From: Candidatus Limnocylindria bacterium
Lineage (GTDB): Bacteria; Chloroflexota; Limnocylindria; QHBO01
Assembly (NCBI GenBank): GCA_046262115.1
Contig: JBHENJ010000067.1
Coordinates: forward strand, 2,211 to 66,210
Reading direction: 5' to 3'
Length of the DNA stretch: 64,000 bases
The notes under the pieces: generated by a model
The model's database searches: none
What the model saw: only the letters and a program-made list of their open reading frames with translations
What the model was told of the DNA's origin: nothing
Translations under genes and position numbers: made by a program
Part shown: piece after piece, positions 6,086 to 37,242 of the stretch
How positions within the stretch are numbered: the first letter of the stretch is position 1
How the letters are laid out: every line of letters begins with the position of its first letter

Positions 6086-7165
6086 GTGTCGCGCATCCTG
6101 GCGATGATCTGGCCGGCGCTCCGTTCCCGCGCGGCTGCCGGCCTGGATCCCGCCGAAGCCGCCGGGTTCGACGCCGCGCTCGACGCGCTGGATGAGCTCT
6201 CCCCGCGGGTCGAGAGCCCGGCCGTCGGATACGCACTCGTGGACGTCACGGGCCTGGGGCGGCTGTTCGGCGACGAGCCGCGGGTCGCCGCGCGGGCCGC
6301 CCACCTCGTCCGGGGCGTTGAACCGCTCGCGGTCCGCCTGGGGATCGGCGACAACCGCTGGCTGGCGACCGTGGCGGCGTCCCGCGCCGCCCACGGCGGC
6401 GTCGAGCGTGTGGCGCCGGACGGCGGCCGCCGCTACCTCGCGCCGCTACCGATCCGGTTGCTCCCCGCCGACGAGGACGTTCGCGGGCGGTTCACGCTGT
6501 TCGGACTGCGGGAGATCGGGCAGCTGGCCGACCTGCCGCGCGCCGCCGTGGCGGCACAGTTCGGCGTGGCGGGCGAGCGGCTGCACGCGCTGGCACGCGG
6601 CGAGGACTCGCGGCCGCTCACGCCGCGCCGCCGTCCCGAATCGGTCGCCGTCGAGTTGCCGTTCGACCCGCCGGTGGACGGCCTGGAGAGGATGGCCTTC
6701 GGCCTGCGACGCGGCTGCGGCGAGCTGTGCGTGACACTCGGGCGGCGGCATCGGGCTCCGGGACGCGCCCGGCTCGAGGTTCAGCTCGAGGCAGGCGCGC
6801 CACTCTGCGTCGAGGTCGTGCTTCCGCAGCCCGCGCTGGAGCCGGACTGGATCGCGCGGCTGCTGATCGCGCGGCTGGAGGCGACGCTGCGGGACGTATC
6901 GGTCCACCACGACGATGCGGAAGAGCCGCGGATCGTCGCGATCCGCCTGACCTTCGATCGGCTCAGCGACCCGTGGGCGCGGCAGCTGCCGGCGTTCGAG
7001 CCGCAGGCGGCGCGCTGGGAGGAGCTGCGCTGGTCGCTTGAGCGGATGCGCAGCCGCTTCGGCCCGGGGCGTCTCCGGCGGGCGCTCCACGAACGGCCGG
7101 CGGCGGCGCTCGCCGAGCGGCAGTCGCGCTTCGTCGACATCGGTCTGGAGGCCGATGCGTCGTGA
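6086..7165 (+). CDS. imuB: ImuB-like inactive Y-family polymerase (N-terminally short; C-terminal domain encoded separately)
   Basis: Contains ELSPRVES...ALVDVTGLGRLFGDEP...RLGIGDNRWLA, the ImuB/UmuC-like little-finger region. At 359 aa it is shorter than typical ImuB (about 450-530 aa), and the canonical N-terminal WCPDWP segment is absent. The GTG start at 6086 is the only start in frame. Confidence 0.65.
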   Translation: MSRILAMIWPALRSRAAAGLDPAEAAGFDAALDALDELSPRVESPAVGYALVDVTGLGRLFGDEPRVAARAAHLVRGVEPLAVRLGIGDNRWLATVAASRAAHGGVERVAPDGGRRYLAPLPIRLLPADEDVRGRFTLFGLREIGQLADLPRAAVAAQFGVAGERLHALARGEDSRPLTPRRRPESVAVELPFDPPVDGLERMAFGLRRGCGELCVTLGRRHRAPGRARLEVQLEAGAPLCVEVVLPQPALEPDWIARLLIARLEATLRDVSVHHDDAEEPRIVAIRLTFDRLSDPWARQLPAFEPQAARWEELRWSLERMRSRFGPGRLRRALHERPAAALAERQSRFVDIGLEADAS

Positions 7166-7416
7166 CCCGTCTCTACACCGATCACCCGTTGGTCCAGGTG
7201 GAGACCGATGTCGACGGGCAGCCACGCACCCTCCGCCTCGACGGCGCGACGCACGGGGAGGTGGGGGTCTGCAACCGCTGGCGGGTCGACGACGACTGGT
7301 GGCGGAACCTGGTGGCGCGCGCCTACTACAAGGTCGTCACGCGCGACGGGCTGCTCTGCACGATCTACCTCGACGAGATGCGCGGGACCTGGCACCTCGA
7401 GCGCATCTTCGACTGA
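7162..7416 (+). CDS. ImuB C-terminal domain-like ORF (DUF4113-like; WRVDDDWW ... AYYKVVTRDGLLCTIYLDEMRGTWHLERIFD)
   Basis: The GTG start overlaps the imuB TGA (GTGA). The sequence matches the conserved extreme C-terminus of ImuB (RFQVV..DG...L.....G.WW.E.iYD), so it is either the frameshifted end of imuB or a split gene. Confidence 0.6.
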   Translation: MTRLYTDHPLVQVETDVDGQPRTLRLDGATHGEVGVCNRWRVDDDWWRNLVARAYYKVVTRDGLLCTIYLDEMRGTWHLERIFD

Positions 7417-7747
7417 CGGTCGGTCACGCGCCGTCCCAGCCGCCTGCCGGTGTCCGTCCGCGGCCGCCCTCCACCCAGGAGCCGGAGCGCGCCGACCACG
7501 ACCAGCTCGACGATCGACCACCTGATCAGGGCCGGAAGGACGGAGGTGTCCATCTGGCCGGTCCCGAACATCGGAAAGGCGTCGCCTCCGGGCGAACGTG
7601 CGGAACGGCGCCATCAGGAGGTCGGTCACCTGGATGAAGAGCGGAAACAGCGATTCGAACTGCTCCGGCCAGCCGAACCGGCAGGATCAGACCAAGCCCG
7701 AGCAGCGCCTGGATGATGCCGAACGCGGCCACGACCAGCGTCAGCAT
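7365..7747 (-). pseudogene. YggT-family small membrane protein, disrupted by two +1 frameshifts
   Basis: Three successive minus-strand frames together rebuild a YggT/YlmG-like protein: MLTLVVAAFGIIQALLGLGLILP | RFGWPEQFESLFPLFIQVTDLLMAPFRTFARR | AFPMFGTGQMDTSVLPALIRWSIVELVVVGALRLL. The shifts lie near positions 7680 and 7590. Confidence 0.5.
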
Positions 7748-7851
7748 CGGGAGCGTCGGCAGAGGCTGTTCGCGTCCGAGGCGCCACCGGTCATGCGCGA
7801 ACACTACGCAGCGCCGCAAGGACCGGTGGCCTGTCATGGCATGCTATCGGG

Positions 7852-8274
7852 GTGACCGATGACGAACGCTTCCCCGCCATCGACGACCCCGGAATGACCG
7901 GCGGCGGGATGCCGCGGCCGGGCGGCACGACAGGGGAGGCCGCCGCCGCCAACCCGTCGCAGCCGGCGCCCCGCGACGTCCCGATCAGCGACCTCGACCT
8001 TCCCGGGCCGGATGACCCCGTCGCCTGGCGCTACGTCAAGCCCGGGACGCCGGTCCACGGCCCGGACGGCGAGCAGATCGGCACCGTCGACACGATGCTC
8101 GGCAGCGACCAGGAGGACATCTTCCACGGAATCGCGGTGCGCATCGGGCTGCTCGGCGCGCCGCGCGTCGTCCGCGCCGACGACGTCGCCGAGATGACAC
8201 CCACCGGCGTCGCCGTGCGGCTCGATGCGGAGGCTCTCTCGAACGCGCCCGAGCATCGGCCGGCCGAACGGTAG
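7852..8274 (+). CDS. PRC-barrel / DUF2171-like domain protein
   Basis: The motif VKPGTPVHGPDGEQIGTVDTMLGSDQEDIFHGIAVRIG is PRC-barrel-like. The start is a GTG. Confidence 0.45.
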   Translation: MTDDERFPAIDDPGMTGGGMPRPGGTTGEAAAANPSQPAPRDVPISDLDLPGPDDPVAWRYVKPGTPVHGPDGEQIGTVDTMLGSDQEDIFHGIAVRIGLLGAPRVVRADDVAEMTPTGVAVRLDAEALSNAPEHRPAER

Positions 8275-9130: not shown

Positions 9131-10029
9131 GCGAGTTGGGACGCATCGGCGTTTGGGGACACCTCGACAGCCTCGTCGCGCAGCATTTCGGCCCGTACGT
9201 CGTGCGCGTCGAGCAGCTCGGGTTCGCGACTCTCTGGGTTCCCGAGACGGTCGGGCGCGAGCCGTTCAGCCTGCTTGCGACGGCCGCCGCGGTGACACAG
9301 ACGCTTCGTCTGGGGACGAGCATCGCGTCGATCTGGGCCCGGGATGCGGTGACGATGCGCTGTTCCGCGCTAGGGCTCCAGGAGCTGTCCGAAGGCCGAT
9401 TCGTCCTGGGCCTCGGCGTCTCGCATCACCACCTCACGCAGAAGGTCCGGGGCCACCGCTACGAACGACCATTGAGCCGCATGAGGGAGTACCTGGCCGC
9501 GTATCGGGCTGCGCCGTACCGCGGCCCGGTCCACGAGCCGCGTCCGGAGCCGCCGATCGTCGTCGCCGCGCTCCGCGAGCGGATGGTCGAGCTGGCAGCG
9601 CGCGAGACCGACGGCGCGTTCCCGTACCTCGTGACGGCGGAGCGCGTCCGATGGATGCGCGATCGCCTGGACGCCGCTGCGGATGAGGCGCACCCGATCC
9701 TCGCGGTGACGCTCCCAGTCGTCCTCGATACCTCGTCGCCCTCCGCGCGCCAGACGGCACGCGCGTACCTCACGCCGTACCTGCGGACGCCGAACTACCA
9801 GGCCAGCTGGACCGAGCAGGGCTTCGAAGACGCCGACTGGGAGAAACCGGGTAGCGACCGTCTTGTCGACGCGATGGTCGCGCACGGCGACGAAGCCGCG
9901 CTCGTCGACCGGGTCGCGGAGCTCCATAGCGCGGGAGCCGATCACGTCGCGCTCATCCCGCTCGCCTCCGACGGAACGACGGAGCACCTCCCAACTCTCG
10001 TCGCGCTGGCCGGGTGCCTGGGTCTCTGA
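9127..10029 (+). CDS. LLM-class (luciferase-like) F420/flavin-dependent oxidoreductase
   Basis: LGFATLWVPE...GLGVSHHHL is the LLM signature. The ATG overlaps the upstream TGA (ATGA). Confidence 0.75.
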   Translation: MSELGRIGVWGHLDSLVAQHFGPYVVRVEQLGFATLWVPETVGREPFSLLATAAAVTQTLRLGTSIASIWARDAVTMRCSALGLQELSEGRFVLGLGVSHHHLTQKVRGHRYERPLSRMREYLAAYRAAPYRGPVHEPRPEPPIVVAALRERMVELAARETDGAFPYLVTAERVRWMRDRLDAAADEAHPILAVTLPVVLDTSSPSARQTARAYLTPYLRTPNYQASWTEQGFEDADWEKPGSDRLVDAMVAHGDEAALVDRVAELHSAGADHVALIPLASDGTTEHLPTLVALAGCLGL

Positions 10030-10041
10030 CATGATCCAGCC

Positions 10042-10470
10042 GTGACCCAGGTTGGGGGCGGTGTCCTCGTGGTGGTCCTCGTGAGCGGGTGCGCCGCCGG
10101 TGCACCGGGCGGGGATTCCGTGACGGAGGCGTCCGCGACAGGGGCCGAATCGCCGGACGCCGGCGAAGCGACCGATGGTCCCGGCGGCGGGCTCGAGCGC
10201 GCCGACATCATCGGCACGCTCGGTGGCGACCCGCAGCTCGAAGGCGGCTGCGCGTGGATCGACGCCGAGGATGGTGAGCGGTACGAGGTCGTCTACCCGA
10301 ACGGCTGGCACGTGGATCAGGACCCCCTCCGCCTCATCGATCCCGACGGTGAAGTTGCCGCCCAGGCCGGCGACCGTATCGGTCTCGTGGGTGCGGTGGA
10401 TGCGGCGATGGCGTCGATCTGCCAGATCGGTCCGATCTTCGTCGCGACCGAGGTCCTGGCCGAGGACTGA
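10042..10470 (+). CDS. Secreted lipoprotein, function unknown
   Basis: Signal peptide plus lipobox (VLVSGC), a GTG start and coding-like GC3. Confidence 0.45.
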   Translation: MTQVGGGVLVVVLVSGCAAGAPGGDSVTEASATGAESPDAGEATDGPGGGLERADIIGTLGGDPQLEGGCAWIDAEDGERYEVVYPNGWHVDQDPLRLIDPDGEVAAQAGDRIGLVGAVDAAMASICQIGPIFVATEVLAED

Positions 10471-10495
10471 CACGCGGCGCGGGTACCATCGGCCG

Positions 10496-11401
10496 ATGAA
10501 GGCGCTCGCGCCGGCGCTGCTGGTGGTCGCCGGTGCGCTCGTCGGCTGCTCCACCGTCGGAGTCGTCAGCTCGCCGGCCCCGACCGCGTCCGTGGACTTC
10601 TCGGCGGCGGCGGGCCGCTCACCCTCACCGTCTCCCGAGCTCGAGCTCCCACCGGAGGTCGTCGCCGGTCCGGATCCCGAGCTCGGTCCACCCCCGGCAC
10701 CGGAGATCGCAGCACTCACGCTGGAGACGCCAGGGGCCGGCGTCGCCGAGGGCGGGCCGCCGGACGACGGCTACATCGGCGACTACTGCGTGCCGCGCGA
10801 CTGGCTGACGCCGCACCTCGCCTACTCCGATTACGCCCGGACTGTCGTCGACCCGACCTACATGGTCACCTCCTACTACGAGCCGCCCGATCTCGTCGCG
10901 GTTTCCGGCGCGCGATTCGGCGGGGAGACGTCGCACGAGCTCGTGCGGGCAGTCGCGATCGATGACCTCGCGTCGTTGCGCACGGCCGCAGAGGCCGCGG
11001 GCGCACCGATCGACGTGCTGTCCGGGTATCGGTCGTACGCGCAGCAGGAAGCGACGTTCACCTACTGGTGGGGGATCCTCGGGTACGAAGCCGCCGTCCA
11101 CCGCGCGGCGCGCCCGGGCCACTCGGAGCACCAACTCGGGACGAGCCTGGACTTCAGCTCGCCGGGCTGGACGGGACGATTCGGCGACTGGGCCACCGAG
11201 AGCCCGTCCGGGGCGTGGATGGCGCAGCATGCGTGGGAGTTCGGCTTCATGATGAGCTATCCGGCTGGCGGCGACCTCGCGACCTGCTACGGGTACGAAC
11301 CGTGGCACTACCGCTGGATCGGCCGCGAGGCCGCCAATGCCGTGCACGCCAGCGGCGTCACGCTCCAGGAGTTCCTGATCGCGAGCGACGTCCGCGAGTG
11401 A
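10496..11401 (+). CDS. D-Ala-D-Ala carboxypeptidase family (peptidase M15B/VanY-like) lipoprotein
   Basis: Lipobox (LVGCS); SGYRSYAQQ...HxxGTSLD...EPWHY are zinc-peptidase M15 motifs. Confidence 0.75.
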   Translation: MKALAPALLVVAGALVGCSTVGVVSSPAPTASVDFSAAAGRSPSPSPELELPPEVVAGPDPELGPPPAPEIAALTLETPGAGVAEGGPPDDGYIGDYCVPRDWLTPHLAYSDYARTVVDPTYMVTSYYEPPDLVAVSGARFGGETSHELVRAVAIDDLASLRTAAEAAGAPIDVLSGYRSYAQQEATFTYWWGILGYEAAVHRAARPGHSEHQLGTSLDFSSPGWTGRFGDWATESPSGAWMAQHAWEFGFMMSYPAGGDLATCYGYEPWHYRWIGREAANAVHASGVTLQEFLIASDVRE

Positions 11402-11659: not shown

Positions 11660-11669
11660 ATCTGGGCCG

Positions 11670-14600
11670 ATGCGCTCGGCGCCATCGGTCAGTGAGTACG
11701 TCGAGCTCCACGCCCACAGCAACTTCAGCTTCCTGGACGGGGCGAGCCATCCCGAGGACCTCGTGGCGCAGGCGGCGCTGGTCGACATGCCGGCGCTGGC
11801 GGTCACCGACCACGCCGGCCTCTACGGAGCGGTTCGCCTCTGGAAGGCAGCCGGACAGACCGATACGGACGCTGCCCGCGCAGCCGGGCTCGCACCGGTA
11901 CGCCCGATCGTTGGGCTGGAGATCGCCGTGCCACGGGACGACGACGAGCTTGCCGCCGCACGACGGGGACGGAAGCTCAACGAGCGCGTCCGCGGGGAGC
12001 GGGCGAGCCGCGGCTGGCCCGGCGAGTTCCACGCCGGCCCGCAGCCCGGTGACCATCTCGTCCTGATTGCGCGCGACGCCGAGGGCTACAGCGCGCTGTC
12101 GCGCCTCGCGTCGCGCGGCCACCTCGCCGGTGAGAAGCAGTTCCCTGTCTTCGCGTCCGAGCTCGTCGCGGCCGCGCTCGACGATGCGCGCGGCCACCTG
12201 GTCGCGCTGTCGGGCTGCCGCAACGGCGAGGTCGCGCAACGCGTGCTCGCCGGCGACCGCGACGGGGCGCTCGACAGCGCGCGGCGGCTCGCGGCGCGCT
12301 TCCCGGACGGCGACTTCGCGATCGAGCTGTCGCACCACTGCCAGCCCGACGATGACTGGCTGGTGACCGAGCTGGCCGCGCTCGCCGACGAGGCGGCCCT
12401 GCCAACCGTGGTCACGAACGAGGTGCACTACGCCGAGCCCGGCGGCCATCGGCTCCACGACGTGCTGGTCTGCATCCGGCACGGCGCGACGCTCGACGAG
12501 AGCCACGAGCTGCGACTGCCGAACGGGGAGTATCGGCTCAAGAGCGGTCGTGAGCTCGTGGCGCTCGGCACGCGGCTGCCCGACGCGCGCGCGCGGCGGG
12601 CGTGGCGCGACGGGATGGCCTGGGCGGCCCGTATCGGCGGTGAGTGCCGGCTTGACCTGGGGTTCGAGCAGTATCGGTTTCCGGGCTTTCAGGTTCCTCC
12701 GGGTGAGACGCCGTTCAGCTACCTCTACCAGCTTGCCCACGACGGCTTACGGGAGCGTTACCGCCCGATTACCAAGCGCGCCCTCGAGCAGCTGACGCAT
12801 GAGCTGGACGTCATTGACCGGACCAACCTGGCCGAGTTCTTCCTGATCGTGTGGGACCTGATGGAGTTCGCGCGCCGCTCCGGGATCATCGGCCAGGGGC
12901 GCGGCAGCTCCGGCGACTCGATCGTGGCCTATGCGCTGGGGATCACCAAGGTCGACCCGATCGAGCACAAGCTGCTCTTCGAGCGCTTCATCAACGAGGC
13001 GCGCGCGCTCCCCGACATCGACATCGACTTCGACGTCAACCGGCGCGAGGAGGTGATCCAGTACGTGTACGACCGATACGGCGCGGACCACGCCGCCATG
13101 GTCTGCAACGTGGTGACGTACCGTGCCCGCTCGGCGGTGCGCGAGGTCGCCAAGGCGCTCGGCTTCCCGACCGAGGCGGTCGATCGGCTCGCGAAGTCGC
13201 TCGACACCCGCGACGCCGGCGACGTGGCGCGCGACCTCGCGCTCGACGGGTCGTTCGGTTGGCTGTTCGACGAGATCGGCGCCGACATGGCCTCGCACGC
13301 CGTCCCGCCGGGGCGTGACGGGCGTGGCAACTACGGCAATCGCGTCGGCGGGCTCGTGCAGCGGGTCGCCGACGACTCGTGGAACCCGCGGCCGCGGCCG
13401 GCGCTGCAGCCGGGCGCCGGGGGATCGGCTGCGCCGGCCGCGACACCGGCTCCGCCGCTCGCCGATGGGCGGCCGCGCTCGGAGAGCGGCTGGTATCCGG
13501 CAAAGCGACCGAGCGTCCTCGACGCATCGGTCACTTCGGTGAAGTACGAAGGTCAGGAGACGAAGCGGTACGCGTTGGTCGACGCGGGGCCCGCCGCGCC
13601 GCCGCTCGACGTTCCGGAGCCGCGGGACAACGGGACGCCCGGGCCGTCGGGCGCGCGGCCGAGCGTGGTCCGGATCGACGAGGAGAGCGGCATGCCGGTG
13701 CGCGTCCCGCGCACGACGGAGATCCGGCCGACGGCCGCTATCGACTCCGGCACGGCGTCCGCGCCGCGCAACCGGTGGCAGTGGCTGCTCCAGCTGTGCG
13801 GGGAGATCAACGGCTTCCCCCGGCACCTCGGCATCCACGTAGGCGGGATGCTCGTGACGCGGACGCCGCTCATCGACATCGTCCCGATCGAGCGGGCAAC
13901 CATGCCGCGGAGGGTCGTCACCCAGTACGACAAGGAGGACGTGGAGGCGCTCGGGCTGGTCAAGATCGACCTGCTCTCCCTGCGGACGTTGGGCGTGGTG
14001 AGCGAGGCGCTCGAGACGATCGAGCGGGACACGGGGCGCAGGATCGACCTCGACCGGCTCCCGCACGACGATCCTAAGGTCTTCGCCACGGTCCAGGCGG
14101 CCGATACGGTGGGCATGTTCCAGATCGAGAGCCGGGCGCAGATGCAGGCGCTCCCCAAGGCGCGCCCCGAGCGCTTCGAGGACCTCGTGGTCCAGGTCGC
14201 GATCATCCGCCCCGGGCCGATCCAGGGGAACGCGGTCCACCCCTACCTGCGGCGGCGGGCGGGCCTCGAGCCGGTGACCTACCTCCACCCAAGCCTCGAG
14301 CCGATCCTGGGCGACACGCTCGGCGTGATCCTCTACCAGGAGCAGGTGATGCAGATCGCCATCGCGGTGTGCGGCTACTCGGCGCTGGAGGCCGATACGT
14401 TCCGCAAGGCGATGGGCTCGCATCGGAGTCATCGCGAGATGGAGCGGGAGCACGTCCGATTTGTCGAAGGCGCCATCGCGACGGGGCTGACGCCCGATGA
14501 CGCCGAGGAGCTGTTCCGGCGTTGCGGGGCGTTCGCCGAGTTCGGGTTCGCCCGTGCGCACGCCGCCGCGTTCGCGAAGATCTGCTACGACACGGCGTGG

Positions 14601-15578: not shown

Positions 15579-15595
15579 ATGCATCTCGCCGCCGG

Positions 15596-18112
15596 CTAGA
15601 GCGCCTCGACCGCCTCCCTGATCTGCTCGGTCGCGGCCTCGTAGTTCGTCCCAACGGGAAATACGAGCGGCCGCCCGAAGATCAGCTCCACGTCGCCGCG
15701 CCACGGCGCGCCCCGCTGGTCGATCACTGACATCCGGTTGATCTTCAACTTCATCGGCACCACCGGCGTCGCGCCGTCCACGGCGACCAGGCCGGTGCCC
15801 GACTTGAACGGCTGCATCGGGCCGCCGAGGGTGAGCTTGCCCTCCGGGTACACCAGCACCGAAAAGTCGCGGTCCAGGCGAGCGCCGAGGAGCTCGAGGC
15901 TGCGGCGCACGGCGCCTTCGCGGGCAAGCGGGAAGGCGTTGCCGACCAGCCCGGCGACGAACCCTCGCAGCTGACTGCCGAAGACGTCGTCCTTGGCGGC
16001 GGCCACGCTGAGGCGCCAGCGCCACGCCAGGGGCATGCAGGTCAGGATGATCGCGTTGTCGAAGTGCAGCCAGTGGTTCGGCGTGAACAGCACCGGCCCG
16101 GCGAGGCCGCTCAGGTGGTGGCGGCCGCTGACCCGGGTCCGGTAGAAGACCATCAGAAACGGCGCGAGCAGCAGCTGCTGGAGAGCGATACGCACCGATC
16201 CCGCCACCGGGCTGAGCGGCCAGCCGTAGATGCCGGTCTCCCTGGGTTGCCCCGTCGCGCCATCGACGAGGGCGCGCACGTCCGCGACCGTCGCTTCGGG
16301 GTCGACCGCGGCGTCGTCGACGAAGGCACCCAGCTCTTCCTCAATCACACTGAGCAGCTCGATCCGGGCCAAGGAGTCGAGACCGAGATCGCTCGACAGC
16401 CGTGAGTGGTCGTGCACCTGGTCGACCGAGACCCCGGCCACGCTCGCGACCACGCTCTCGACCGACACGGCCGGTCTGGCGGCTTGCGTCGCGTGCGGGC
16501 GCTCGTCGGCAGTGACCTCGCGGCCGCTCTGCCGTTCGAGCATTTCGAGCCGATCGACGACGAGCCGCTTCTTGACCTTCAACGTGTGGGTGCGCGGGAA
16601 GTCCTCGTCGGGCCAGACCGAGTGGGCGCGGATCTGCTGGCTTGGCGAGAGCCTGGCGTTCGCGTCGCGCACGATCGCCTCGCCGTCGATGGCGTTGCCG
16701 TCGGTCGCCGCTGTCACGTCGGCCGGCAGCAGCACGGCATGGATCTGCATGCCCTCGCCGAGCCGCTCGCGGCCGACGACCACGGCGTCCCTGAGCCGGT
16801 CGTCGTGGGCGAGGACGTTCTCGATGTCCTCGGGAAAGACGTTGGTGCCGTCGGCGAGGACGATCATGTCCTTCTTGCGCCCGCGCAGTGTCAGGAAGCC
16901 GTCGCTCGACAGCTCGCCCAGGTCTCCGGTGGCGTACCAGCCGTCCCGGAGGACGGCTTGCGTCGCCGACGGCTCCTCCCAGTAGCCCGGGAAGACGCTC
17001 GCGCCTCGGACGAGGATCTCGCCGTCGCTGGCGATGGTGACCTGCATGCCGGGGACCGCCCGGCCGACGGTGCCGAGACGGTTCGCATTGGTCCTCGTGA
17101 AGCTGATCACCGGCGAGCACTCCGTGGCGCCGTAGCCCTGCAGCACCTGCATCCCCATCTCCTCCCAGCGCCGTCCCAGCTCGGCGTCGAGCGCCGCGCC
17201 CCCAACCGCAATGAATCGAAGGCGGCCACCGAAGCCGCGGTGCACCGGCAGGAACAGTAGGCGTCGCAACCGCATCGGCAGCCGGCGCGCGAGGCGGTGA
17301 AGTCGCTCGAAGCTCCGGCGCCTGCCCGAGGCGTCCACCTGCCTCTCGATCGCGTTGTCGAGGAGGCGCAGCGCCTGCGGCACGAGCAGGATCATGGTGA
17401 TGCCGTAGTCGCGGAAGGCGCGGACCAGGACCGATGGCTGGCGGCTCATCGGATACGCGACCGACGCACCTGCAAGCAGCGGCGCCAGCAGCCCGCAGGT
17501 CTGCTCGAACATGTGCGACAGGGGCAGGACCGAGAGCAATCGTTGGCGGGGGCCTAGCGGGAAGACCTCGACCAGCGCCGTCGCGTTCGAGAGCACGTTG
17601 CCATGGGTCAGCATCACCCCCTTCGGCTCACCGGTCGTTCCGGATGTGAACATGACCTCGGCGAGGTCGTCGGCGCCGATGGCGGCGCGCGGCAACGGCG
17701 TCTGGTCCCGGGCCAGGTCGGGAAGGGACTCGATCATCAGGATCGGCAGGCCGAGGGACTTCGCAAGGTCGAGCGTCTGGACGGACGCGATCACGAGCCG
17801 GGCACGCGTGTGCTCGACCACCTTGCGCGCGAGATCCGTCTGCGAGCGCACATCGAGCGGCACGAGCACGGCGCCGGCGTGGAGCGCGCCGAGAAAGGCG
17901 ATGCCCCACTCCGGCCGGTTGACCGCCCAGATCACGACCCGGTCACCCTGCTTCACGCCGTCCGCGGCGAACACCGCCGCCACGCGGGCCACCAGGTCCG
18001 GGAGCTGGCGGTAGCGCCAGCGCCGGGTGCGGAAGCCCGGCTTGATGAGCAGCGCCGGCTGCCTCGCGAACCGCGCCGCCGATGCGTCGATGACTTCGAG
18101 GAGATTGCTCAT
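15596..18112 (-). CDS. Tri-domain fusion: acyl-AMP ligase (FadD-like), acyl-carrier domain and 1-acyl-sn-glycerol-3-phosphate acyltransferase (PlsC/LPLAT)
   Basis: AMP-binding motifs (TSGTTGEPKGVMLTH, YGATE, GDLG), the phosphopantetheine site LGLDSLARIEL, then the acyltransferase motifs NHWLHFD (HX4D) and VYPEGK. I start at the ATG at 18112 (MSNLLEV), whereas the tool ORF is over-extended to 18304. Confidence 0.8.
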   Translation of the reverse strand: MSNLLEVIDASAARFARQPALLIKPGFRTRRWRYRQLPDLVARVAAVFAADGVKQGDRVVIWAVNRPEWGIAFLGALHAGAVLVPLDVRSQTDLARKVVEHTRARLVIASVQTLDLAKSLGLPILMIESLPDLARDQTPLPRAAIGADDLAEVMFTSGTTGEPKGVMLTHGNVLSNATALVEVFPLGPRQRLLSVLPLSHMFEQTCGLLAPLLAGASVAYPMSRQPSVLVRAFRDYGITMILLVPQALRLLDNAIERQVDASGRRRSFERLHRLARRLPMRLRRLLFLPVHRGFGGRLRFIAVGGAALDAELGRRWEEMGMQVLQGYGATECSPVISFTRTNANRLGTVGRAVPGMQVTIASDGEILVRGASVFPGYWEEPSATQAVLRDGWYATGDLGELSSDGFLTLRGRKKDMIVLADGTNVFPEDIENVLAHDDRLRDAVVVGRERLGEGMQIHAVLLPADVTAATDGNAIDGEAIVRDANARLSPSQQIRAHSVWPDEDFPRTHTLKVKKRLVVDRLEMLERQSGREVTADERPHATQAARPAVSVESVVASVAGVSVDQVHDHSRLSSDLGLDSLARIELLSVIEEELGAFVDDAAVDPEATVADVRALVDGATGQPRETGIYGWPLSPVAGSVRIALQQLLLAPFLMVFYRTRVSGRHHLSGLAGPVLFTPNHWLHFDNAIILTCMPLAWRWRLSVAAAKDDVFGSQLRGFVAGLVGNAFPLAREGAVRRSLELLGARLDRDFSVLVYPEGKLTLGGPMQPFKSGTGLVAVDGATPVVPMKLKINRMSVIDQRGAPWRGDVELIFGRPLVFPVGTNYEAATEQIREAVEAL

Positions 18113-18113: not shown

Positions 18114-18775
18114 TCAGCCGCCCTCGGCCACCGCTGCGATGCTACGCCGGGCGTCGAGGCGCCATGGCGGGTAGTGGGCCAGGCAGATCGTCTCGACGTC
18201 GAGCTCGGCGAGCCGCGACAACGAGCGCCTGGCCATGGCGACGTCGTCGCTGAAGAAGGCACTGGGCCCCATGAGGCGTCCGCGGAAGACCTGGAGCATG
18301 TCACCCACGATCAGGACGCGATGCTGCGACCCGTACAGGCAGACGCTGCCCGGTGTGTGACCCGGGGTGTGGATGACCCGCAGCCCGCCGAGCGCGGGGA
18401 ACTCCTGGCCGTCGTCGATCGGCCTCGCGTTCTCCAGCGGGCGGGTGAGGAGGGCGATGAGACCCGGCCGGGCACGACTGGCGAGAGCCTCGCGGAAGGT
18501 GATCCTCAGCCGCTCGCCGTCGGCAGGGTGGATGAACACCTCGCCACCGACGCTGCCGCGATCTCGTGGGCGCCACCGACGTGGTCGGGATGGCCGTGGG
18601 TGCAGATGATGCGCGTCACCTCGTCGATCGATCGGCCCAGACCGTCGAGATAGCGCGCCAGGCGCCGAGCGGAGCCGCGGTGGCCCGCGTCGACGAGCGT
18701 GATGGCGTCCTCGCAGATCAAGTATCCGGTGGAGCCGATGAGCTGCACCGCGTGCAGCGTCGGCAAGACCTCCAC
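18114..18775 (-). pseudogene. MBL-fold metallo-hydrolase with one frameshift
   Basis: The N-terminal half (VEVLPTLHAVQLIGSTGYLICEDAITLVDAGH...ICTHGHPDHVGGAHEIAA, with the HxHxDH motif) is in one frame. The C-terminal half (GGEVFIHPADGERL...GGLRVIHTPGHTPGSV...) is in another frame. The junction is near 18545-18565. Confidence 0.5.
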
Positions 18776-19770
18776 CGCTCCGACTCAGGCCGGTGTCACG
18801 GCGCAGGGCGCCCTCGAAGAACTCGCGCAGCCAGGCGCGGTAGTCATCGCGACACGTCTCCAGCACGGCGGCGTGCACAGCGTCGGGACAGAGGTGCAGC
18901 GCCGCGACCACGCCGCCCTCCTGCGCCGCCGCGACGAGCTGCTCAGCGTTCTCCGGGCCCTGTTCCTGGTCGCGCCCGCCCTGGAGAATCAGTCGCCGAG
19001 GTCTTCCACGGCATCGACCGCATCCGCTGACGGTATCCAGGCCCCGGTCCGGACCCACGTTCCGAGGATGACCGCCCAGTATCCGGGGAGCGTGAGCGGG
19101 TAGCGCTGGTTGCGGAGCCGCGCCTCGATCGTGTTTCCGATCGTCGCGTGGGTCGAATCCACCGCGACCGCGGCGACGCGGCCATCGCCCGCCGCCACGT
19201 TGAGCGCCGTCACGCCGCCCATCGACAGTCCGGACAGGCCGACCCGCTGTGGTGCCTTCTCACGTGCCAGCCAGTCGAGCACCGCGCTCACGTCGTCCTG
19301 CTCGCGCACTCCCATGGCCGTGTGCATGGCTTGGCTGCGCCCGTGATTCCTCAGGTCGAAGAGCACGACGTTGTACCGATCATGAATCAGCTCGGCGTAA
19401 TTCGAGCATGTCGCTCTTGGAGTTGTTGTGACCGTGCACGAACACCACGGTCTCGCCGTGCCGGCCGATCTCATCGCCCGCCGCGATGTACCAGCCCGCC
19501 AGACGCGTCCCGTCGGCGCTGACGAGCTCCGAGCGAGGTCCCCGCGCCCCGTCGTGCACTTCCGCAGATCGGCCTGCTCTCGCTCCAGTCGCTCGTCATC
19601 GGCGCGGTCGTAGTTGATCGCCTCATAGGCCCAGCCGTACTCCGTGCGCGGGGTGAAGCACCATATGCTCCGCGACGGATGGACGAGCAGGCGCGATAAG
19701 GTACGCGGCCGCGATGAGTACGGCCGCGACGGCCACGAAGACCTCGGGCCGCCGGAGCCGGCTACGCGTC
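18776..19770 (-). pseudogene. Membrane-anchored alpha/beta-hydrolase (DUF1100/BAAT-like) broken by at least 4 frameshifts
   Basis: Four frames read in succession rebuild one protein: an N-terminal TM segment (MTRSRLRRPEVFVAVAAVLIAAAYL...), then ...SADGTRLAGWYIAAGDEIGRHGETVVFVHGHNNSKSDMLE, then YAELIHDRYNVVLFDLRNHGRS...GLSMGG (nucleophile elbow) and finally ...RLILQGGRDQEQGPENAEQL...HLCPDAVHAAV...FFEGAL. The shifts lie at about 19650 (a CCCC run), about 19520-19545, about 19395 and about 18990. Confidence 0.5.
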
Positions 19771-19779
19771 ATCGATCAC

Positions 19780-23806: not shown

Positions 23807-24018
23807 GTTCTCCAAGGTTGACGCGGAAAGGGCGCGGTACCGATACTCCCACAGTTCCGACGACGCCGATCGCGGCGTCGTGGCTACCGCAGCGGAGGAG
23901 TGTCATGACGACGGTTGTGTCGATCGAGCTCGTGTCACGCCCCCGCGGAGTCAGCGGCTAGCACTCGCTGACCCACTGCCGTCCCGCGTGGACGGCGCTC
24001 CCGCTCCGGGTCGCCGGC

Positions 24019-24411: not shown

Positions 24412-24442
24412 GTAACGATGCCGTTCGCGCTGGGCTGTCGCG

Positions 24443-26486: not shown

Positions 26487-26700
26487 ATGGTCATCGTCAT
26501 CGCGGCCGTGGCGCTTCTCGTCATCCGCCTGTCGTTGACGCTCATCCCCATCGGGCCGCTCGACGACTTCCCGCTCCGATACGTCCACCCGACGTTCCTG
26601 AACTATGGGTACGCGGTCGACCGTCAGCTTGGCTACATGTGCCTCCCCGCCGCGCCGATCCTCTCATCGTCGGCTCACTCTTTCCGGGTATCTGACAGGC
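26487..26700 (+). CDS. Hypothetical small membrane protein (MVIVIAAVALLVIRLSLTLIPIG...); the end point is uncertain
   Basis: It has an N-terminal TM helix, but the tool ORF continues into a low-complexity tail that is probably not real. It is similar to the next small ORF. Confidence 0.25.
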
Positions 26701-26704
26701 ACCG

Positions 26705-26878
26705 ATGCGCGGTACCCAGCACGCCCCGCGCTTCATCACGATCGTCATCGCCGCGGCACTTGTCGTGGTGGGTGTCCTGGGCACGTTCGCCGGCGTCCTG
26801 CCGGACACGATCGGCGTCTCGTCGTACGTCGCCGCGTTCGTGCTCCTGATCATCGGGGTCTTGATCCGGCAGATCTGA
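26705..26878 (+). CDS. Hypothetical 57-aa two-TM membrane protein (MRGTQHAPRFITIVIAAALVVVGVLGTFAGVLPDTIGVSSYVAAFVLLIIGVLIRQI)
   Basis: It forms a clean TM hairpin. It falls below the ORF-track size cutoff. Confidence 0.35.
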   Translation: MRGTQHAPRFITIVIAAALVVVGVLGTFAGVLPDTIGVSSYVAAFVLLIIGVLIRQI

Positions 26879-30657: not shown

Positions 30658-33428
30658 TCATCGGCTCCGGGCCGATCGTCATCGGTCAGGCTGCCGAGTT
30701 CGACTATGCAGGCGTGCAGGCGTGCCTGGCGTTGCGCGGCGCGGGGGTCGAGACACTGCTCGTCAACTCCAACCCGGCGACGGTGATGACCGATCCCGAC
30801 GTCGGCGGCACCGTGCTGATCGGCCCGCTCAGCGTTGAGAACCTGACGCGGATCGTCGAGGAGCACCGCCCCGATGCGCTGCTGCCCACGCTGGGCGGAC
30901 AGACCGGCCTCAACCTGGCGGTCGCGCTCGACGATGCGGGCGTCCTGCGTCGCCACGGCGTCGAGGTGCTCGGGACGCCGCTGGCGGCGGTGCGCGCGGC
31001 GGAGGACCGCGGCGGGTTCAGGGACCTCGTGACGGCGATGGGCGAGCCCGTTCCCGAGAGCGCGGTCGTCGAGGACGTCGAGTCGGGGCTGCGCTTCGTC
31101 CGCGGCGTCGGGACGCCGGTCGTCATACGGCCCGCGTACACGCTCGGCGGCGGCGGCGGCGGGTTCGCCTTCGACCTCGACGAGGCGCGCGCCCGCATCG
31201 GCGCCGGGCTCGCTGCGAGTCCAATCGGCCAGGTGCTCGTGGAGCGCTCCCTCCTGGGCTGGCAGGAGATCGAGTTCGAGGTCCTGCGCGACCGCGCCGA
31301 CACCGCCATTGCCGTCTGCGGCATGGAGAACTTCGACCCGATGGGCGTTCACACCGGCGACTCGGTCGTCGTCGCGCCCATCCAGACGCTGCCCGACGCG
31401 GTCGTCCAGCGGCTGCGCTGGTGCGCGCTGAAGATCGTCCGCGCGCTCGGCATCGAGGGTGGCTGCAACGTCCAGCTGGCGGTCGCGCCCGATGGCTCCG
31501 ACTACCGCGTCATCGAAGTCAATCCGCGCGTGAGCCGGTCCAGCGCGCTGGCCTCCAAGGCGACCGGCTACCCAATCGCGAGGGTCGCCGCGCTTCTCGC
31601 GCTCGGCACCCGGTTGGACGAGCTTCCGAACCCGGCGACTCGTGGGGGCTCGGCGGCGTTCGAGCCTGCGCTCGACTATGTGGTCGTGAAGCTGCCGCGC
31701 TGGCCGTTCGACAAGTTCCCGCTGGCGGACCGATCGCTGGGGGTGCAGATGAAGGCGACCGGCGAGGCGATGGCCATCGACCGCGAGTTCGGCCCCGCGC
31801 TGCTCAAGGCGATCCGCTCGGTCGAGCCGCGGCGGCGCGGCTGGCTCTGGGAGGATGAAGCGTGGGGGGTCGAACGCGGCGGCCCGGACAACCTTCGCGT
31901 CTTCCTGGAACCGTCCGACACGCGGCTCTGGCGACTCGTGGCCGTGCTGCGCCACGGATTGAGCGATGCCGCCGAGCTCGCGGCCCTGACGGGGATCAAT
32001 CCATGGTTCACGGAACGCCTCGCCGAGCTCGTCGCCGCCGAGACGAAGGTAGTGGGAGCCCCGCTCGACGAGGCGAAATCGGCGGGCTTCGGGGACGCCG
32101 ACATCGGCTTGCTGTCGGGAGTGCCGGCCGCAGCCGTCCGGCGTGCACGGGTGCGCGCCGGCATCGGCCCCGCCTACCGCCGCGTCGACACCTGCGCCGG
32201 CGAGTTCCCGGCCGAGACCCCCTACTTCTACTCGAGCTACGCGGCGCCCGAGGTGGCACCGCCCGCCGGCCGCCGCTCGGTGATTGTCGTCGGCTCGGGG
32301 CCCATCGGCATCGGCCAGGGGATCGAGTTCGACTACTGCTCGGTGCGCGCCGCGTGGGCGATCCGTCGGATGGGCTATGACGCGGTGGTCGTCAACAACA
32401 ATCCCGAGACGGTCAGCACCGACTACGACGCCTGCAGCCGCCTCTACTTCGAGCCGCTCGACACCGAGAGCGTGCTCGACGTGATCGATCACGAGCGGGC
32501 GCTCACCGGCGAGCCGCCGCACGTCGTGCTGACGTTCGGCGGACAGACCGCCATCGACCTCGCGAGAGACCTCGCCTACGCCGACGTGCCGATCGCCGGG
32601 CTCACCGCCGACGCGATCGAGATCACCGAGGACCGCGAGCGCTTCGCGCAGTTGCTGGAAGAGCTGGGCATCGACGCTCCGCGCGGCCTACCCGCGGCCG
32701 ATGCGGAACAGCTCCACGCGGCGGTCGCAACGCTGGGGCTGCCGGTGATCGTCCGGCCTTCGTGGGTGATCGGCGGCCGGGGGATCACCGTCATACGGAC
32801 ACTCGACGATCTGCGCGAGCTCCTCGCGGGCGGCGGAATCGCATGGCCGCTGCGCGTCGACGAGCTGGTGGACGGGATCGAGCTCGACATCGATGCGGTC
32901 TCCGATGGCGAGGCGACGTGCGTGCCCGGCATCCTCGAACAGCTCGATCCGCCGGGCATCCATTCCGGCGACAGCGCCGCCGTCGTCCCGCCGCAGCGGC
33001 TGTCGCGCGCGGTCCAGGAACGAGCCGCGGACGTCGCCGCGCGGATCGCGGCGGCACTCGGCGTGCGCGGCATCATCAACGTCCAGGCAGTCGTCGACGG
33101 GGATCGCATCGTCGTCATCGAGGCCAACCCCCGGGCGAGCCGCACCGTTCCGATCCTCGCCAAGGCCACCGGACACGACATCGTGGCAGCGGCCGTCCGG
33201 TGTGCCCTCGGCGCTTCGCTGACCGACGTCGGGCTCGCGACAGGGCTGTTTCCCGATGCGCCACTCGTCGCGGTCAAGTGGCCGGTCGACTCGCTTTGGA
33301 GGCTGCCCGGCGTGGACCGGAACGTCGGTCCCGAGATGCGCTCCACGGGAGAGGTGCTGGGACTCGAGGCCACCTACGCGGATGCGCTTCGATCCGCCCG
33401 CGATGCGGTCGTCCCGCACCAGCGATAG
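30639..33428 (+). CDS. carB: Carbamoyl-phosphate synthase large subunit, 929 aa, lacking the C-terminal MGS-like allosteric domain
   Basis: Two ATP-grasp halves, each with an IGQA/IGQG(I)EFDY motif. The protein ends right after the ...MRSTGEV motif. It overlaps carA by 19 nt. Confidence 0.9.
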   Translation: MPRRVLIIGSGPIVIGQAAEFDYAGVQACLALRGAGVETLLVNSNPATVMTDPDVGGTVLIGPLSVENLTRIVEEHRPDALLPTLGGQTGLNLAVALDDAGVLRRHGVEVLGTPLAAVRAAEDRGGFRDLVTAMGEPVPESAVVEDVESGLRFVRGVGTPVVIRPAYTLGGGGGGFAFDLDEARARIGAGLAASPIGQVLVERSLLGWQEIEFEVLRDRADTAIAVCGMENFDPMGVHTGDSVVVAPIQTLPDAVVQRLRWCALKIVRALGIEGGCNVQLAVAPDGSDYRVIEVNPRVSRSSALASKATGYPIARVAALLALGTRLDELPNPATRGGSAAFEPALDYVVVKLPRWPFDKFPLADRSLGVQMKATGEAMAIDREFGPALLKAIRSVEPRRRGWLWEDEAWGVERGGPDNLRVFLEPSDTRLWRLVAVLRHGLSDAAELAALTGINPWFTERLAELVAAETKVVGAPLDEAKSAGFGDADIGLLSGVPAAAVRRARVRAGIGPAYRRVDTCAGEFPAETPYFYSSYAAPEVAPPAGRRSVIVVGSGPIGIGQGIEFDYCSVRAAWAIRRMGYDAVVVNNNPETVSTDYDACSRLYFEPLDTESVLDVIDHERALTGEPPHVVLTFGGQTAIDLARDLAYADVPIAGLTADAIEITEDRERFAQLLEELGIDAPRGLPAADAEQLHAAVATLGLPVIVRPSWVIGGRGITVIRTLDDLRELLAGGGIAWPLRVDELVDGIELDIDAVSDGEATCVPGILEQLDPPGIHSGDSAAVVPPQRLSRAVQERAADVAARIAAALGVRGIINVQAVVDGDRIVVIEANPRASRTVPILAKATGHDIVAAAVRCALGASLTDVGLATGLFPDAPLVAVKWPVDSLWRLPGVDRNVGPEMRSTGEVLGLEATYADALRSARDAVVPHQR

Positions 33429-33437
33429 CGAGCGCGG

Positions 33438-34103
33438 TCAACGCCGAGCGTGCCGCGCAGCCTCCCGAAGTGTCCGCGCCTCGGCGAGCCGGCGGCGCCA
33501 ATACCCGCCGAACCAGCCAGCGAGCGCTCCGAGCAGGACCGTCGGCAGGCCGAAATAGAGGACAAAAACGCCGATGAATCCCGGGTCGAAACCGACCCCC
33601 GACGACGTGATCTGATAGACCGCGTACGCGAGCAGGAAGATCAACCCCGTCACCGCCGCCGCCAGCCCGTACAGCCACGGTCGCTGCCAGCCAAGGTACC
33701 CGGCGCCGATAAGCGCGCCGAACTCGACCATGGAGGCGACGAATCCGATCGCGCTGGACGACTCGAACAGCCTGGCGACCGCCCACACCAGGCCGGCGAC
33801 GAGCCAGATCACCGGGTTCGCGCGGAGGACATGGACGCCGGCGGCAGGCGCCCGGAGCCAGCTCGGCCCGGAGTGCGAGAACCCCGCGAGCGGATCGGGC
33901 TTGTCGGGAAGCGGCGCCGCAGGCGGGACGAACATCCGCTGTAAGAGGTTCGGCCGGGGCGGCCGATCTCGGCCGGCCGAGTCGACGTCGCCCTCATCGT
34001 CGTCCGGCTCCCGATCGGTGCCGGCGCCCTGTCGCGCGCGTCGGCGAGCTTCGGCGCGGCTCTCGGCGTCACGAGACGAGCGTCGCCGCGAGCTCTGCGC
34101 CAT
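33438..34103 (-). CDS. Membrane protein with a charged N-terminal region and 4 TM segments, function unknown
   Basis: ORF of 221 aa with high GC3. Confidence 0.45.
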   Translation of the reverse strand: MAQSSRRRSSRDAESRAEARRRARQGAGTDREPDDDEGDVDSAGRDRPPRPNLLQRMFVPPAAPLPDKPDPLAGFSHSGPSWLRAPAAGVHVLRANPVIWLVAGLVWAVARLFESSSAIGFVASMVEFGALIGAGYLGWQRPWLYGLAAAVTGLIFLLAYAVYQITSSGVGFDPGFIGVFVLYFGLPTVLLGALAGWFGGYWRRRLAEARTLREAARHARR

Positions 34104-34238
34104 CGGCCGATTCTACGACCGGCCGCCGTAACCGCCCGGTAACGCCGGCGTAACCGCCTCCGCGGACTTTCTCCCGGCTGCGTCTCCGTGCAGGGAGGAG
34201 TGCGGATGCCTCGGGAGAATCGACCGCGAGCCGCGGTC

Positions 34239-37200
34239 ATGACGATCGCGCGCGCTACGGTGTCTCTCGTGGCCGCCATCGGGCCGTTGATGGCGTGGAC
34301 GACGATCGGCGTGGCGGCCGACGCTTCGCACCTCGTCATCAGCGAGCTCGTCACGGGTGGAGCGACTGCCAGCGACGAGTTCATCGAGATCTACAACCCG
34401 CTGGCCGTCGATGCGCCGCTCGCGGGGCTGGAGCTCATCTACGTGACTGCCAGCGGGACCACCGTGACCCGGCGCGCGGCGTGGAGCGAGGGCGCGATCG
34501 CTCCGCACGCGCACGTCCTCGTCGCAAACGACGCAGGGATCTATCGGACGGTCGCCGACAGCGTGTACACCAGCGGCACGAGCGCTTCGGGCGGGAGCGT
34601 CGCGTTGCGTGCGATCGGCTCGTCGACGGCCATCGATGCGGTCGGGTGGGGCAATGCCACAAGCACGTGGGTGGAGGGCGACCCGGCCACGGCGGCGCCC
34701 CCGGGCTCGAGCCTCGAGCGTCTTCCCGGCGGCACGCTCGGGTCGGGCCACGACACGGACGACAACGCGCACGACCTGGTCATCCGATCCGTCCCTGAGC
34801 CGCAGAACATGGGCTCGCAGCCGACTCCGCCCATCGGCCCCGGTGGAACGCCATCGCCGGCGTTTGGCGACCCGTCGTCCACGCCGCCGTCGCCGCTGCC
34901 GAGCGCGGAGCCCACGTCTCTCACCTCGCCAGGCGCGACGCCATCATCAACCGCCAGCCCGAGCGCCGCTCCATCAGCCACGGCGACGCCAACAGCCACC
35001 GCCGCGCCCACAGTGACGCTTCCGCCGTCGTCGACGGCGACTCCCATGGAGCCGGCAGCGCCTGCGCCGATCACCGTCGCCACGGCGCGTTCGCTCCCGG
35101 AGGGCGCTCCGGCGACGATCGAAGGCACGGCGCTGAGCGCGTCCGACTTCACCGATGGTGGCGGGTTCGTCGCCGACCACTCCGCCGGTATCGCCGTGAT
35201 CGTGTCGGGCGACACGTTCGAACGCGGCGAGCGCGTGCGACTCAGCGGCGTGACGGATGAGCGCTATCACCAGACGACGCTTCGCGCCGACACGGTCACA
35301 CACCTCGGTGCCCGCTCCGAGCCCGCGGCCGAGGACCGGTCGACCGGGAGCATCGGCGAGTCAGCCGAGGCCACCCTCGTCTCCATCCGCGGGTACGTGA
35401 TCGGGCGCGCCACGGAGCTGACCGCGGGTCTGGCGTACGAGCTCGACGACGGATCAGGCGCGGTGCGCGTCCTCGTCGTCCCGGTCACCGGGATCGACAC
35501 CACTGGCTGGGTCCCGGGCGCCGCCGTCTCGGTTACCGGCGTGGTGAGCCAGCGCGACTCGAGCGGCCACCGGCACGGCCGGTTACCGCGTCCTTCCGCG
35601 CGACGAACAGGATGTCCGCGACGTGTCGCCGCCACCGTCTCCGACGGCGAGCGCGTCCGGTTCACCGTCCTCGACGCCTCGGCCGACGACGCCATCGCCG
35701 ACGCGGTCCGGTCCGGCAGGCAGCCAGGCCGCGCTCCCGCTGATCTCGATCGCAGCGGCGCGCGCAGCGGAGTCCGACGAGTCCGTGCGCATCCGCGGCG
35801 TAATCACCGCGTCACGGGGCGCAGTGCTCGACGCCGACAGCGCCTTCGTGCAGGACGACACAGCCGCGCTCCTGCTCCGCGTACCCGATGACGTGACGCT
35901 TCCCGGGCGCGACGAAACCGTGGAGCTGTCCGGCACCCGCTCCTCGAAGGCCGGGATGCTCTCGCTCCGCGTCGAGGCTGCGACGGCGGTCGGGCACGCG
36001 GCGGCACCATCGCCCATCGAGGTCGCGACCGGCGCACTCGTCAACAGCGGCGAGGACTACGAGGCGCGCCTCGTCCGCGTCGCCGGCGTGGTCGCCTCAC
36101 CCCGTCTGTCGTCGCTCGGCAACCTGTCGTTCACCATCGACGACGGGAGCGGCCCGCTTCGCGTCTTCGTGTACGCGTCGACCGGCATCGACGCCGTGGT
36201 CTTCGAGGCCGGCGCATGGTTCGAGCTGCGCGGGGTGCTCGGACAGGAGACGAGCGGGGACAACCCGACCGAAGGCTATCGCCTGTGGCCGCGCGACTCC
36301 GGCGACGTGCGCCTCGTCGCGCCGGCGACCGCGGCAGGAGGCTCTGCCGGCCAGGCCGCAACCGCCGACCGAGCGGCCGACGGCGGCTCGGACGGCGCCA
36401 TCGGCGAAGTACGCGACCCCGACGGCCAGGACCTGGGCTCCCTGGTTGCGCCCCGTCCGGGTGAGAGCGGAGGACCGGCCGCCGCCACGCTCGTCCTACC
36501 GGCGTGGCCCGAGCTCGACCTTGCGGCTCTCCTGTGGGACGGCTCGACCGCGGTGGGCGTCCGCGACTCGCCCGATGCCCGCGATCGCGTCAGGACCCTT
36601 CTCGACGGCCGTCGGCCTCCGCTGGTGGTGAGCGTCGACGGCGAGGCGAGCGCGGCGACGTGGGGTCCGCTGGCGGGATGGACCCTCACACTCAGCGATC
36701 CGGGGGCGCTCGAGACCATCGGCGGCAGTCCGCGGCCTCCGGCCACGTCGCTTCCGTCCGAGCCGGCGGCGGCGTGGACGCAGCTGCTCGGCCGCCTCGA
36801 GATTGGCCGCGACAGTGCCGCGCTGCGGGTCGACGGCGCGTCCGTGCCGGTGGAACTCCAGTGCGAGGACGCTTCGTCAACCGAGGCGTGGTCGTCGCTC
36901 GACGGTAAGCTGATCAGGGTCACGGGGCTCGCCGGTGACGCCGGAGGCGGGGTCATGATGCTCGTGCCGTGCTCGGGATTCGCCGCGGCGCCCACGCTCG
37001 CTGCCGATGGTTCCGGGCTGTCCACGGACCGCGCCAGCGCGGCTTCGGCCGAGCGCGACATCCGCGAACCGTCGTCCGAGGTCGATGCCGGGATGCTGCT
37101 CGTCGGCGCCGGGGTGGCGACGATGCTGACGAGCACGCTCATCGCCCTCGCCTGGCGGAACGGCACGATCGGCCGCGTCCTGGCGCGATTTCGGCCCGAG

Positions 37201-37242
37201 GAGCCGGCCGGTGAGCCACGGGAGGAGCGGCCAGCGTCCTGA
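34239..37242 (+). pseudogene. Large lamin-tail-domain (LTD) cell-surface protein with three repeated beta-rich modules and a C-terminal TM anchor, carrying one frameshift (~35578)
   Basis: Signal peptide, the LTD motif (HLVISELVTGGATASDEFIEIYNP) and a Pro/Ser/Thr linker. The repeat-1 end ...VTGVVSQRDSSGHRHG continues in the next frame as YRVLPRDEQDV, which parallels the repeat-2 end GVLGQETSGDNPTEGYRLWPRDSGDV. The junction lies in a GGCCGG run. Confidence 0.5.

Follow-up and report, generated by a model that had tools for sequence, protein, structure and literature searches.

The window analysed here is a 64-kb stretch of DNA (70% G+C) from the metagenome-assembled genome (MAG) of a soil Limnocylindria bacterium (Chloroflexota; NCBI locus-tag prefix ABR509, proteins MFN2484677–MFN2484722). 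Four of its genes, encoding a yggT-like protein, an alpha/beta hydrolase, a metallo-beta-lactamase (MBL)-fold hydrolase and a lamin-tail-domain (LTD) surface protein, are interrupted by changes of reading frame, and a fifth, a flavin oxidoreductase, persists as a deletion remnant (Table 1). The genes were mapped by a codon-usage Viterbi pass trained on long open reading frames (ORFs) and by scanning each coding segment against Pfam and NCBIfam. The resulting map holds about 62 genes, 17 of which were classed as core (carA, carB, gap, pgk, eno, rpsT, lepA, hemW, hrcA, grpE, dnaK, dnaJ, prmA, rpsU, ybeY, pth and mfd) and 45 as non-core. Exact NCBI protein matches under the ABR509 prefix were found for the products of carB, gap, dnaK, dnaE2, the ligase fusion described below, ImuB and ImuB-C. 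To call lesions, Viterbi pieces were stitched together, homologues were searched for, and intact homologues were realigned to the DNA with a purpose-written frameshift-aware aligner; for the yggT-like gene and the oxidoreductase, placement used DNA alignments of the window to close relatives.

The analysis covers this one window and a few short sister contigs. The closest relative with this imu neighbourhood (L164) encodes an ImuB 78% identical to that of the window, and a further relative (L165) stands at 75%. Three sister assemblies (L166–L168) share about 88% DNA identity with the window, and L169 is the sister MAG GCA_030860875.1; GCA_030154965.1 and GCA_030154945.1 are sister MAGs as well. 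Exact look-ups of GAPDH and of the 550-aa LTD fragment P0080 matched neither a gene record nor a second assembly. A scan of genome contigs with DnaE2 returned relatives of at most 51% identity and yielded no sister genome. A metagenome scan with the ligase returned relatives of at most 64% identity, which served for the synteny of the MBL and ligase genes and not for comparison at the level of individual lesions.

Table 1. Positions in the window of the disrupted genes, their intact neighbours and the segments that differ among relatives.
Feature	Positions	Strand	Basis
LLM/luciferase-like flavin oxidoreductase remnant	5760..6068	+	Intact 289-aa gene in L164; DNA alignment shows junction
ImuB-type (Y-family-like) body ORF, 359 aa, intact	6086..7165	+	IMS and Pol IV profiles; identical to P0208 (ABR509_07050)
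Standalone ImuB-C ORF, 84 aa	7162..7416	+	GTG start overlaps upstream TGA (GTGA); junctions in relatives
Segment holding the yggT-like gene	7419..7795		blastn of L166, L167 and L168 against the window; L164 gene map
yggT-like gene, probable pseudogene	7424..7747	-	Homology through three frames; stitched product, Pfam YGGT, DNA alignments to L163 and L164
4.26-kb block (ligase, MBL, alpha/beta hydrolase) absent from L169	15579..19836		Comparison with GCA_030860875.1
AMP-binding/carrier-protein/acyltransferase fusion (ligase fusion), 838 aa, intact	15596..18112	-	Full-length Pfam domains; identical to P0342
MBL-fold hydrolase, one 1-nt deletion	18115..18775	-	Pfam Lactamase_B; alignment to P0008, P0018 and P0043
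alpha/beta hydrolase, probable pseudogene	18785..19772	-	Frameshift-aware alignments to P0001, P0002, P0003 and P0005; homologue termini; three-frame reading
Lamin-tail-domain/OB-fold surface protein, about 1000 aa, one extra C	34188..37242	+	Homologues P0081–P0083 and others

Reading frames of the core and the disrupted genes

The core genes were judged by profile match, with the exception of mfd, which is cut by the window end and was not judged. All of them, together with dnaE2 and the ligase fusion, give one-frame matches that run end to end or nearly so, which bears out the original prediction that the named core and long genes carry no frameshift. The same prediction had placed at least 8–9 indels in about five accessory genes, imuB among them. 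We count 9–10 lesions, all in the yggT-like, MBL, alpha/beta hydrolase and LTD genes; imuB leaves the list, as set out further below, and the fifth damaged gene is the oxidoreductase remnant, which the prediction did not include.

The yggT-like gene carries three derived indels relative to the intact genes of two relatives, L163 (protein P0200) and L164: +1 near 7443, -5 at 7592/7593 and -2 at 7676/7677. Read from its ATG, the gene stays open for about 70 codons before a premature stop. The stitched product is 86% identical to the intact 109-aa protein P0200, and its match to Pfam YGGT is full-length but weak. A 140-aa ORF about 100 nt away, like the other genes compared with close relatives, shows in-frame differences only. 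The segment that holds the gene is cleanly missing from L166–L168, and at the junction near 7417–7420 L164 has an extra DUF4260 gene (about 355 nt), lying between ImuB-C and yggT, which the window lacks. Close by, between imuA' and imuB, L164 carries an intact 289-aa oxidoreductase gene. The window retains its ribosome-binding site, start and first six codons, followed by a frame-breaking internal deletion of 560 nt and then the last 97 codons; the retained part has 90% amino acid identity and a ratio of nonsynonymous to synonymous substitution rates (dN/dS) of 0.12. The relative L165 is without the oxidoreductase, DUF4260 and yggT. Two further features of the yggT-like gene were observed. In its core (7544–7658, minus strand) the window, L163 and L164 share 95–100% DNA identity, as against about 75–85% in the flanks and neighbours, a conservation that exceeds what synonymous sites should show. 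Its indels sum to a multiple of three (+1-5-2 = -6), such that the first and last segments share a frame.

Damage to the alpha/beta hydrolase is heavier still in number of lesions. Its homologues (324–347 aa, 50–64% identity) align via alternating frames, with changes near 19700 (about -20 nt), 19545 (-1), 19400 (+1) and 18990 (about -10 nt). At the first of these, the N-terminal membrane helix lies in another frame and the seven residues before 'SRLLVHP', present in all homologues, are missing. At the last, the stretch around 'RPL' that immediately precedes the LILQGG strand has lost three to four conserved residues, and it is because of these missing residues that a deletion of about 10 nt is placed there. 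No start codon opens the frame that holds the catalytic core. An in-frame stop is missing from the final frame where the homologues end, so a fifth lesion probably lies near 18787–18808. At conserved columns the hydrolase is more deviant than any of 36 homologues, including at two positions that are 100% conserved, which may point to some relaxed constraint. Here too the indels sum to a multiple of three (-20-1+1-10, about -30), and the end segments share a frame.

The two remaining genes each carry one single-base lesion. In the MBL gene a deletion of one base near 18545 moves the reading from frame -2 to frame -3; it is placed alike by all three aligned homologues, and positions 9–67 and 96–196 of Pfam Lactamase_B are matched in different frames. 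In 68 related loci the MBL gene appears as a single-frame high-scoring segment pair that immediately precedes the ligase; the pair spans the whole gene at 53 of these loci. The LTD gene has an extra C at about 35566–35569 that shifts the reading from frame +3 to frame +1, and 3/3 aligned homologues put the +1 shift at 35569. The lesion falls inside a conserved motif, between GVVSQRDSSG and TGTAGYRVLPRD, which are contiguous in the homologues; more than 100 of these (950–1060 aa) cover 89–96% of the stitched product.

The hydrolase and MBL genes lie beside the intact ligase fusion, which has single-frame homologues of 52–64% identity in 80 loci. All three are absent from L169, where the dnaE2 stop is followed by yjbR after 11 nt. 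The 4.26-kb block that they form is flanked in the window by an imperfect direct repeat, CTCG(G)CCGCCGGC, at 15579–15600 and 19795–19815, and one similar copy is left at the L169 junction, an arrangement which suggests that the block was lost by deletion between short repeats.

In each of the four interrupted genes the homology runs across at least two frames of one strand. Functional frame changes, either split genes or programmed frameshifting, are one conceivable explanation for such a pattern, and in the imuB/ImuB-C pair of this same window a change of frame did prove to mark a conserved gene boundary. However, the yggT, hydrolase, MBL and LTD genes of the relatives are each one continuous ORF, three-frame readings of the window found neither start codons nor coupled stop/start overlaps at the junctions in these genes, conserved residues have been deleted, and translation of the yggT-like gene from its start codon would end early. 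We therefore hold a functional origin of these four frame changes to be barely credible.

Distribution and origin of the lesions

The lesions are concentrated in few genes. Under random placement on the coding sequence, the probability that 9–10 lesions would hit no more than four of the 62 genes is 2.5e-5 to 1.2e-4. The original prediction had instead rested its case on gene essentiality, and that argument proves weak. At the gene level, 4–5 of 45 non-core genes are broken against 0 of 17 core genes, which is not significant (P = 0.19–0.27). The probability that all 9–10 lesions fall outside core genes is 0.025–0.036, a figure that assumes independent lesions, which these are not. The intactness of the core genes is what selection would be expected to produce and is not significant alone; the informative signal is the clustering of multiple hits.

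Residual homopolymer indels of long-read assemblies and homology-guided frameshift repair are known sources of apparent frameshifts. On this model, which extends the reference-guided polishing offered in the original prediction, random homopolymer errors of long reads would have been spread over the whole contig and then repaired, by reference or homology, in conserved genes only. The resemblance is real in that such errors also produce apparent frameshifts in otherwise good ORFs of MAGs; moreover, all lesions of the window lie outside well-conserved core genes, and the source is a MAG that may have been sequenced on a long-read platform. The lesions themselves differ from what this process leaves behind. 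No homopolymer run of five bases or longer contains a lesion, and the ten 6-base runs of the window are all in intact genes and in frame. Most lesions are not single-base changes; among the deletions, lengths of 2, 5, about 10, about 20 and 560 nt occur. They are clustered in four genes (P about 1e-4) and spare ORFs of no known family, which a homology-guided polisher could not reach: those at 7852–8274, 10042–10470, 22141–22881, 33438–34103 and 55614–56234 are uninterrupted. Conversely, the broken hydrolase, MBL, LTD and yggT-like genes have database homologues of 50–86% identity that a protein-guided polisher could have used, and the searches brought up no genome above about 88% DNA identity on which DNA-guided polishing could have drawn. 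Errors followed by guided repair are thus a very improbable source of the pattern, and this part of the original prediction is not supported.

A more serious rival is that the sample contained several strains differing in whether they carry exactly these segments, that local assembly or consensus errors accumulated there because coverage and consensus quality would drop, with the assembler or polisher introducing spurious small indels, and that the genes are intact in the cell. Both multi-hit loci do coincide with segments that are present in some close relatives and absent from others. Against this, the lesions do not follow the variable segment as a whole: in the 4.26-kb block, 6/6 lesions lie in the 1.65 kb of the MBL and hydrolase genes and none in the adjacent 2.5 kb of the ligase, for which (1.65/4.17)^6 gives P = 0.004 if errors tracked coverage. 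The lesions end at gene boundaries, and the 140-aa ORF close to the yggT-like gene has none. Consensus errors would not usually take the form of 5-, about 10- and about 20-nt deletions with loss of conserved residues, the hydrolase has substitutions at invariant positions, and the neighbouring 560-nt deletion remnant shows real decay at the yggT-like/imu locus. We regard assembly error as the main rival, and as unlikely overall.

Taking these comparisons together, we consider real, recent, deletion-biased decay of dispensable genes to be the probable and best explanation of the lesions. Clustering, the non-homopolymer context and the intactness of the ligase and of the no-family ORFs argue against both random error and guided polishing, and the multi-hit loci are exactly where the sister assemblies have clean deletions, which argues against random error. 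The pseudogenisation favoured by the original prediction is accordingly best supported for the multi-hit yggT-like and hydrolase genes, where it is backed by the 560-nt remnant and by the deletions in sisters. For the MBL and LTD genes we infer that the single-base lesions belong to the same process.

Several observations weigh against decay, or at least restrict it. The lesions, their sizes and clustering, their sequence context and the state of the genes in relatives are seen in assembled sequence; that the lesions are present in the DNA of the organism, and not only in the assembly, we infer. In the ancestral frame the yggT-like gene has a dN/dS of 0.11–0.12, the same as between two intact relatives, and by a rough estimate (assuming an indel:substitution rate of 1:10) three indels with almost no neutral substitutions would be only about 10% likely. 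Indels without any excess of nonsynonymous change, and hence without a sign of relaxed selection, also match the look of assembly errors. In both the MBL and the LTD gene a single base is affected, within a 2-base run and between flanks that are perfectly conserved; these two lesions are not separable from sequencing errors and could be errors. Loss of the MBL gene alone would be a little odd, since it is intact in more than 60 relatives as the conserved partner of the ligase. Deviation at conserved columns was meant to date the MBL lesion, but MBL and the intact ligase are similarly deviant from their families, and the lesion therefore carries no sign of age. That the indel sums are multiples of three in both the yggT-like gene and the hydrolase may be chance and is unexplained. 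Because dN/dS is 0.11–0.12 in the yggT-like gene and 0.12 in the oxidoreductase remnant, the lesions must be very young or, for the small ones, artefactual.

On the preferred reading, the affected genes lie in flexible parts of the chromosome and would no longer be needed by the lineage. A first inactivating hit would be followed by drift and by further small indels and deletions, yielding the yggT-like gene with its three lesions, the hydrolase with four to five and the 560-nt remnant. Neighbours under selection (the ligase, the 140-aa ORF, the ImuB body, ImuB-C and all core genes) stay clean, and the core genes would be intact because purifying selection removes such mutations. Relatives either keep the genes intact, as L163 and L164 do for yggT and as is seen for the oxidoreductase, or have already removed them cleanly (L165–L169), and the lineage of the window would be part-way between.

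Bacterial pseudogene decay with a deletional bias is a general phenomenon, reportedly described by Mira, Ochman and Moran and by Kuo and Ochman. The window resembles it in having multiple indels in non-essential genes, mostly deletions of 1 nt to hundreds of nt, with relatives at every stage from intact to absent and with nearby selected genes untouched. It differs in that the lesions look very young and the ratio of indels to substitutions is above expectation, and the comparison concerns one 64-kb window only. This excess is also the basis for a variant in which a recent burst of indel-driven inactivation would reflect an unusual mutational regime, for instance a phase of heightened indel mutagenesis or, with genome reduction just setting in, a severe population bottleneck in a soil Limnocylindria. 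At least 5 of about 62 genes are dead or remnants, the yggT-like gene combines three indels with no excess of dN, and the frame shifts partly cancel; even so, we think such a burst quite improbable. Ordinary decay is expected behaviour, and nothing points to a new mechanism. A literature search on pseudogenes in Limnocylindria retrieved no publication.

The preferred reading of decay has consequences for annotation. The deposit lists a 161-aa 'alpha/beta hydrolase' (18992–19474) as an ordinary protein and a 550-aa 'lamin tail domain-containing protein', P0080 (34188–35891), whose last roughly 100 residues are out of frame and Arg-rich. From the run of accession numbers, the yggT-like piece is probably annotated likewise. 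These fragments of broken genes should be flagged as pseudogenes, whereas the imuB/ImuB-C pair should not be 'repaired' as a frameshift. More broadly, the window captures the turnover of the flexible genome of an uncultured soil lineage at one moment: among close relatives, the same genes are found whole in some, broken in others and deleted in yet others.

The ImuB body and the standalone ImuB-C gene

The original prediction had counted imuB as frameshifted at 7162. We rejected this candidate: the apparent frame change is a conserved boundary between the ImuB body and a separate ImuB-C gene under purifying selection. The stop and start codons overlap as GTGA, and the same overlap occurs in L001, L164 and L165. 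The junction is identical even in L001, a MAG of the Chloroflexi with no more than 51% identity in DnaE2. Among the best 120 ImuB homologues, about 118 are body-only (332–377 aa), ending where the window ORF ends, and only two are fused. The ImuB-C gene has a dN/dS of 0.05 against L164. It falls in an 11-member cluster made up entirely of 84-aa ORFs, and the ten others, which come from other assemblies, are at least 90% identical to that of the window.

Standalone ImuB-C genes have been described in the literature (PMC6511836). As in the published systems with a Y-family protein, a standalone ImuB-C and DnaE2 (Timinskas and Venclovas 2019, PMC6511836; Aravind et al. 2013, PMC3765255), the body ORF is followed by a small ImuB-C ORF with dnaE2 nearby. 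Two differences are apparent. The published standalone-ImuB-C variants are reported to be without ImuA (PMC6511836), whereas the window keeps a RecA-like ImuA' directly upstream (4868–5749; RecA match E = 4.9e-24, ImuA_translesion 4.3e-10). In addition, dnaE2 lies about 4 kb from the ImuB/ImuB-C pair with unrelated genes in between. Because an ImuA-type gene is present, we regard the window as a variant of the published arrangement. The combination of ImuA', body and ImuB-C (4868–7416; dnaE2 at 11670–15578) is widespread in relatives. The DnaE2 of the window (1302 aa) has an insertion of about 190 aa (residues ~517–703) that splits the match to the polymerase NTPase domain, and the distant DnaE2 homologue of L001, 1387 aa long, is interrupted there as well, by a low-complexity insert.

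Other regions of the window

Other candidate lesions were examined and rejected. The region 26487–26878, considered as one frameshifted gene, reads as two small membrane ORFs with their own starts and without homologue support. A frame change in 9824–10066, together with the region 10467–10691 upstream of VanY, was attributed to Viterbi noise in a linker/signal-peptide region, where the ORFs are open and the profiles complete. The long N-terminal extension of lepA (and of other long ORFs) was put down to over-extension of ORFs in high-GC DNA.

An interval of 536 nt (23907–24442) between two minus-strand genes, for a radical SAM protein and an AlkZ-like protein, is without coding signal. The one plus-strand ORF tested in it has no Pfam match, and an Rfam scan of the interval was empty; it might be another decayed gene. 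Across the window, the Rfam and tRNA scan had a single match, a tRNA-Ala at 4787–4862.

Two observations concern core genes. The 929-aa product of carB (30639–33428) follows the CarB models as far as position 925/1058 and no further; the C-terminal MGS-like allosteric domain is absent, no remnant of it lies downstream, and a convergent membrane-protein gene begins 10 nt on. At 39412–42953, gap, pgk and eno sit side by side and pgk is not separated from eno by tpiA, in contrast to the common gap-pgk-tpiA arrangement.

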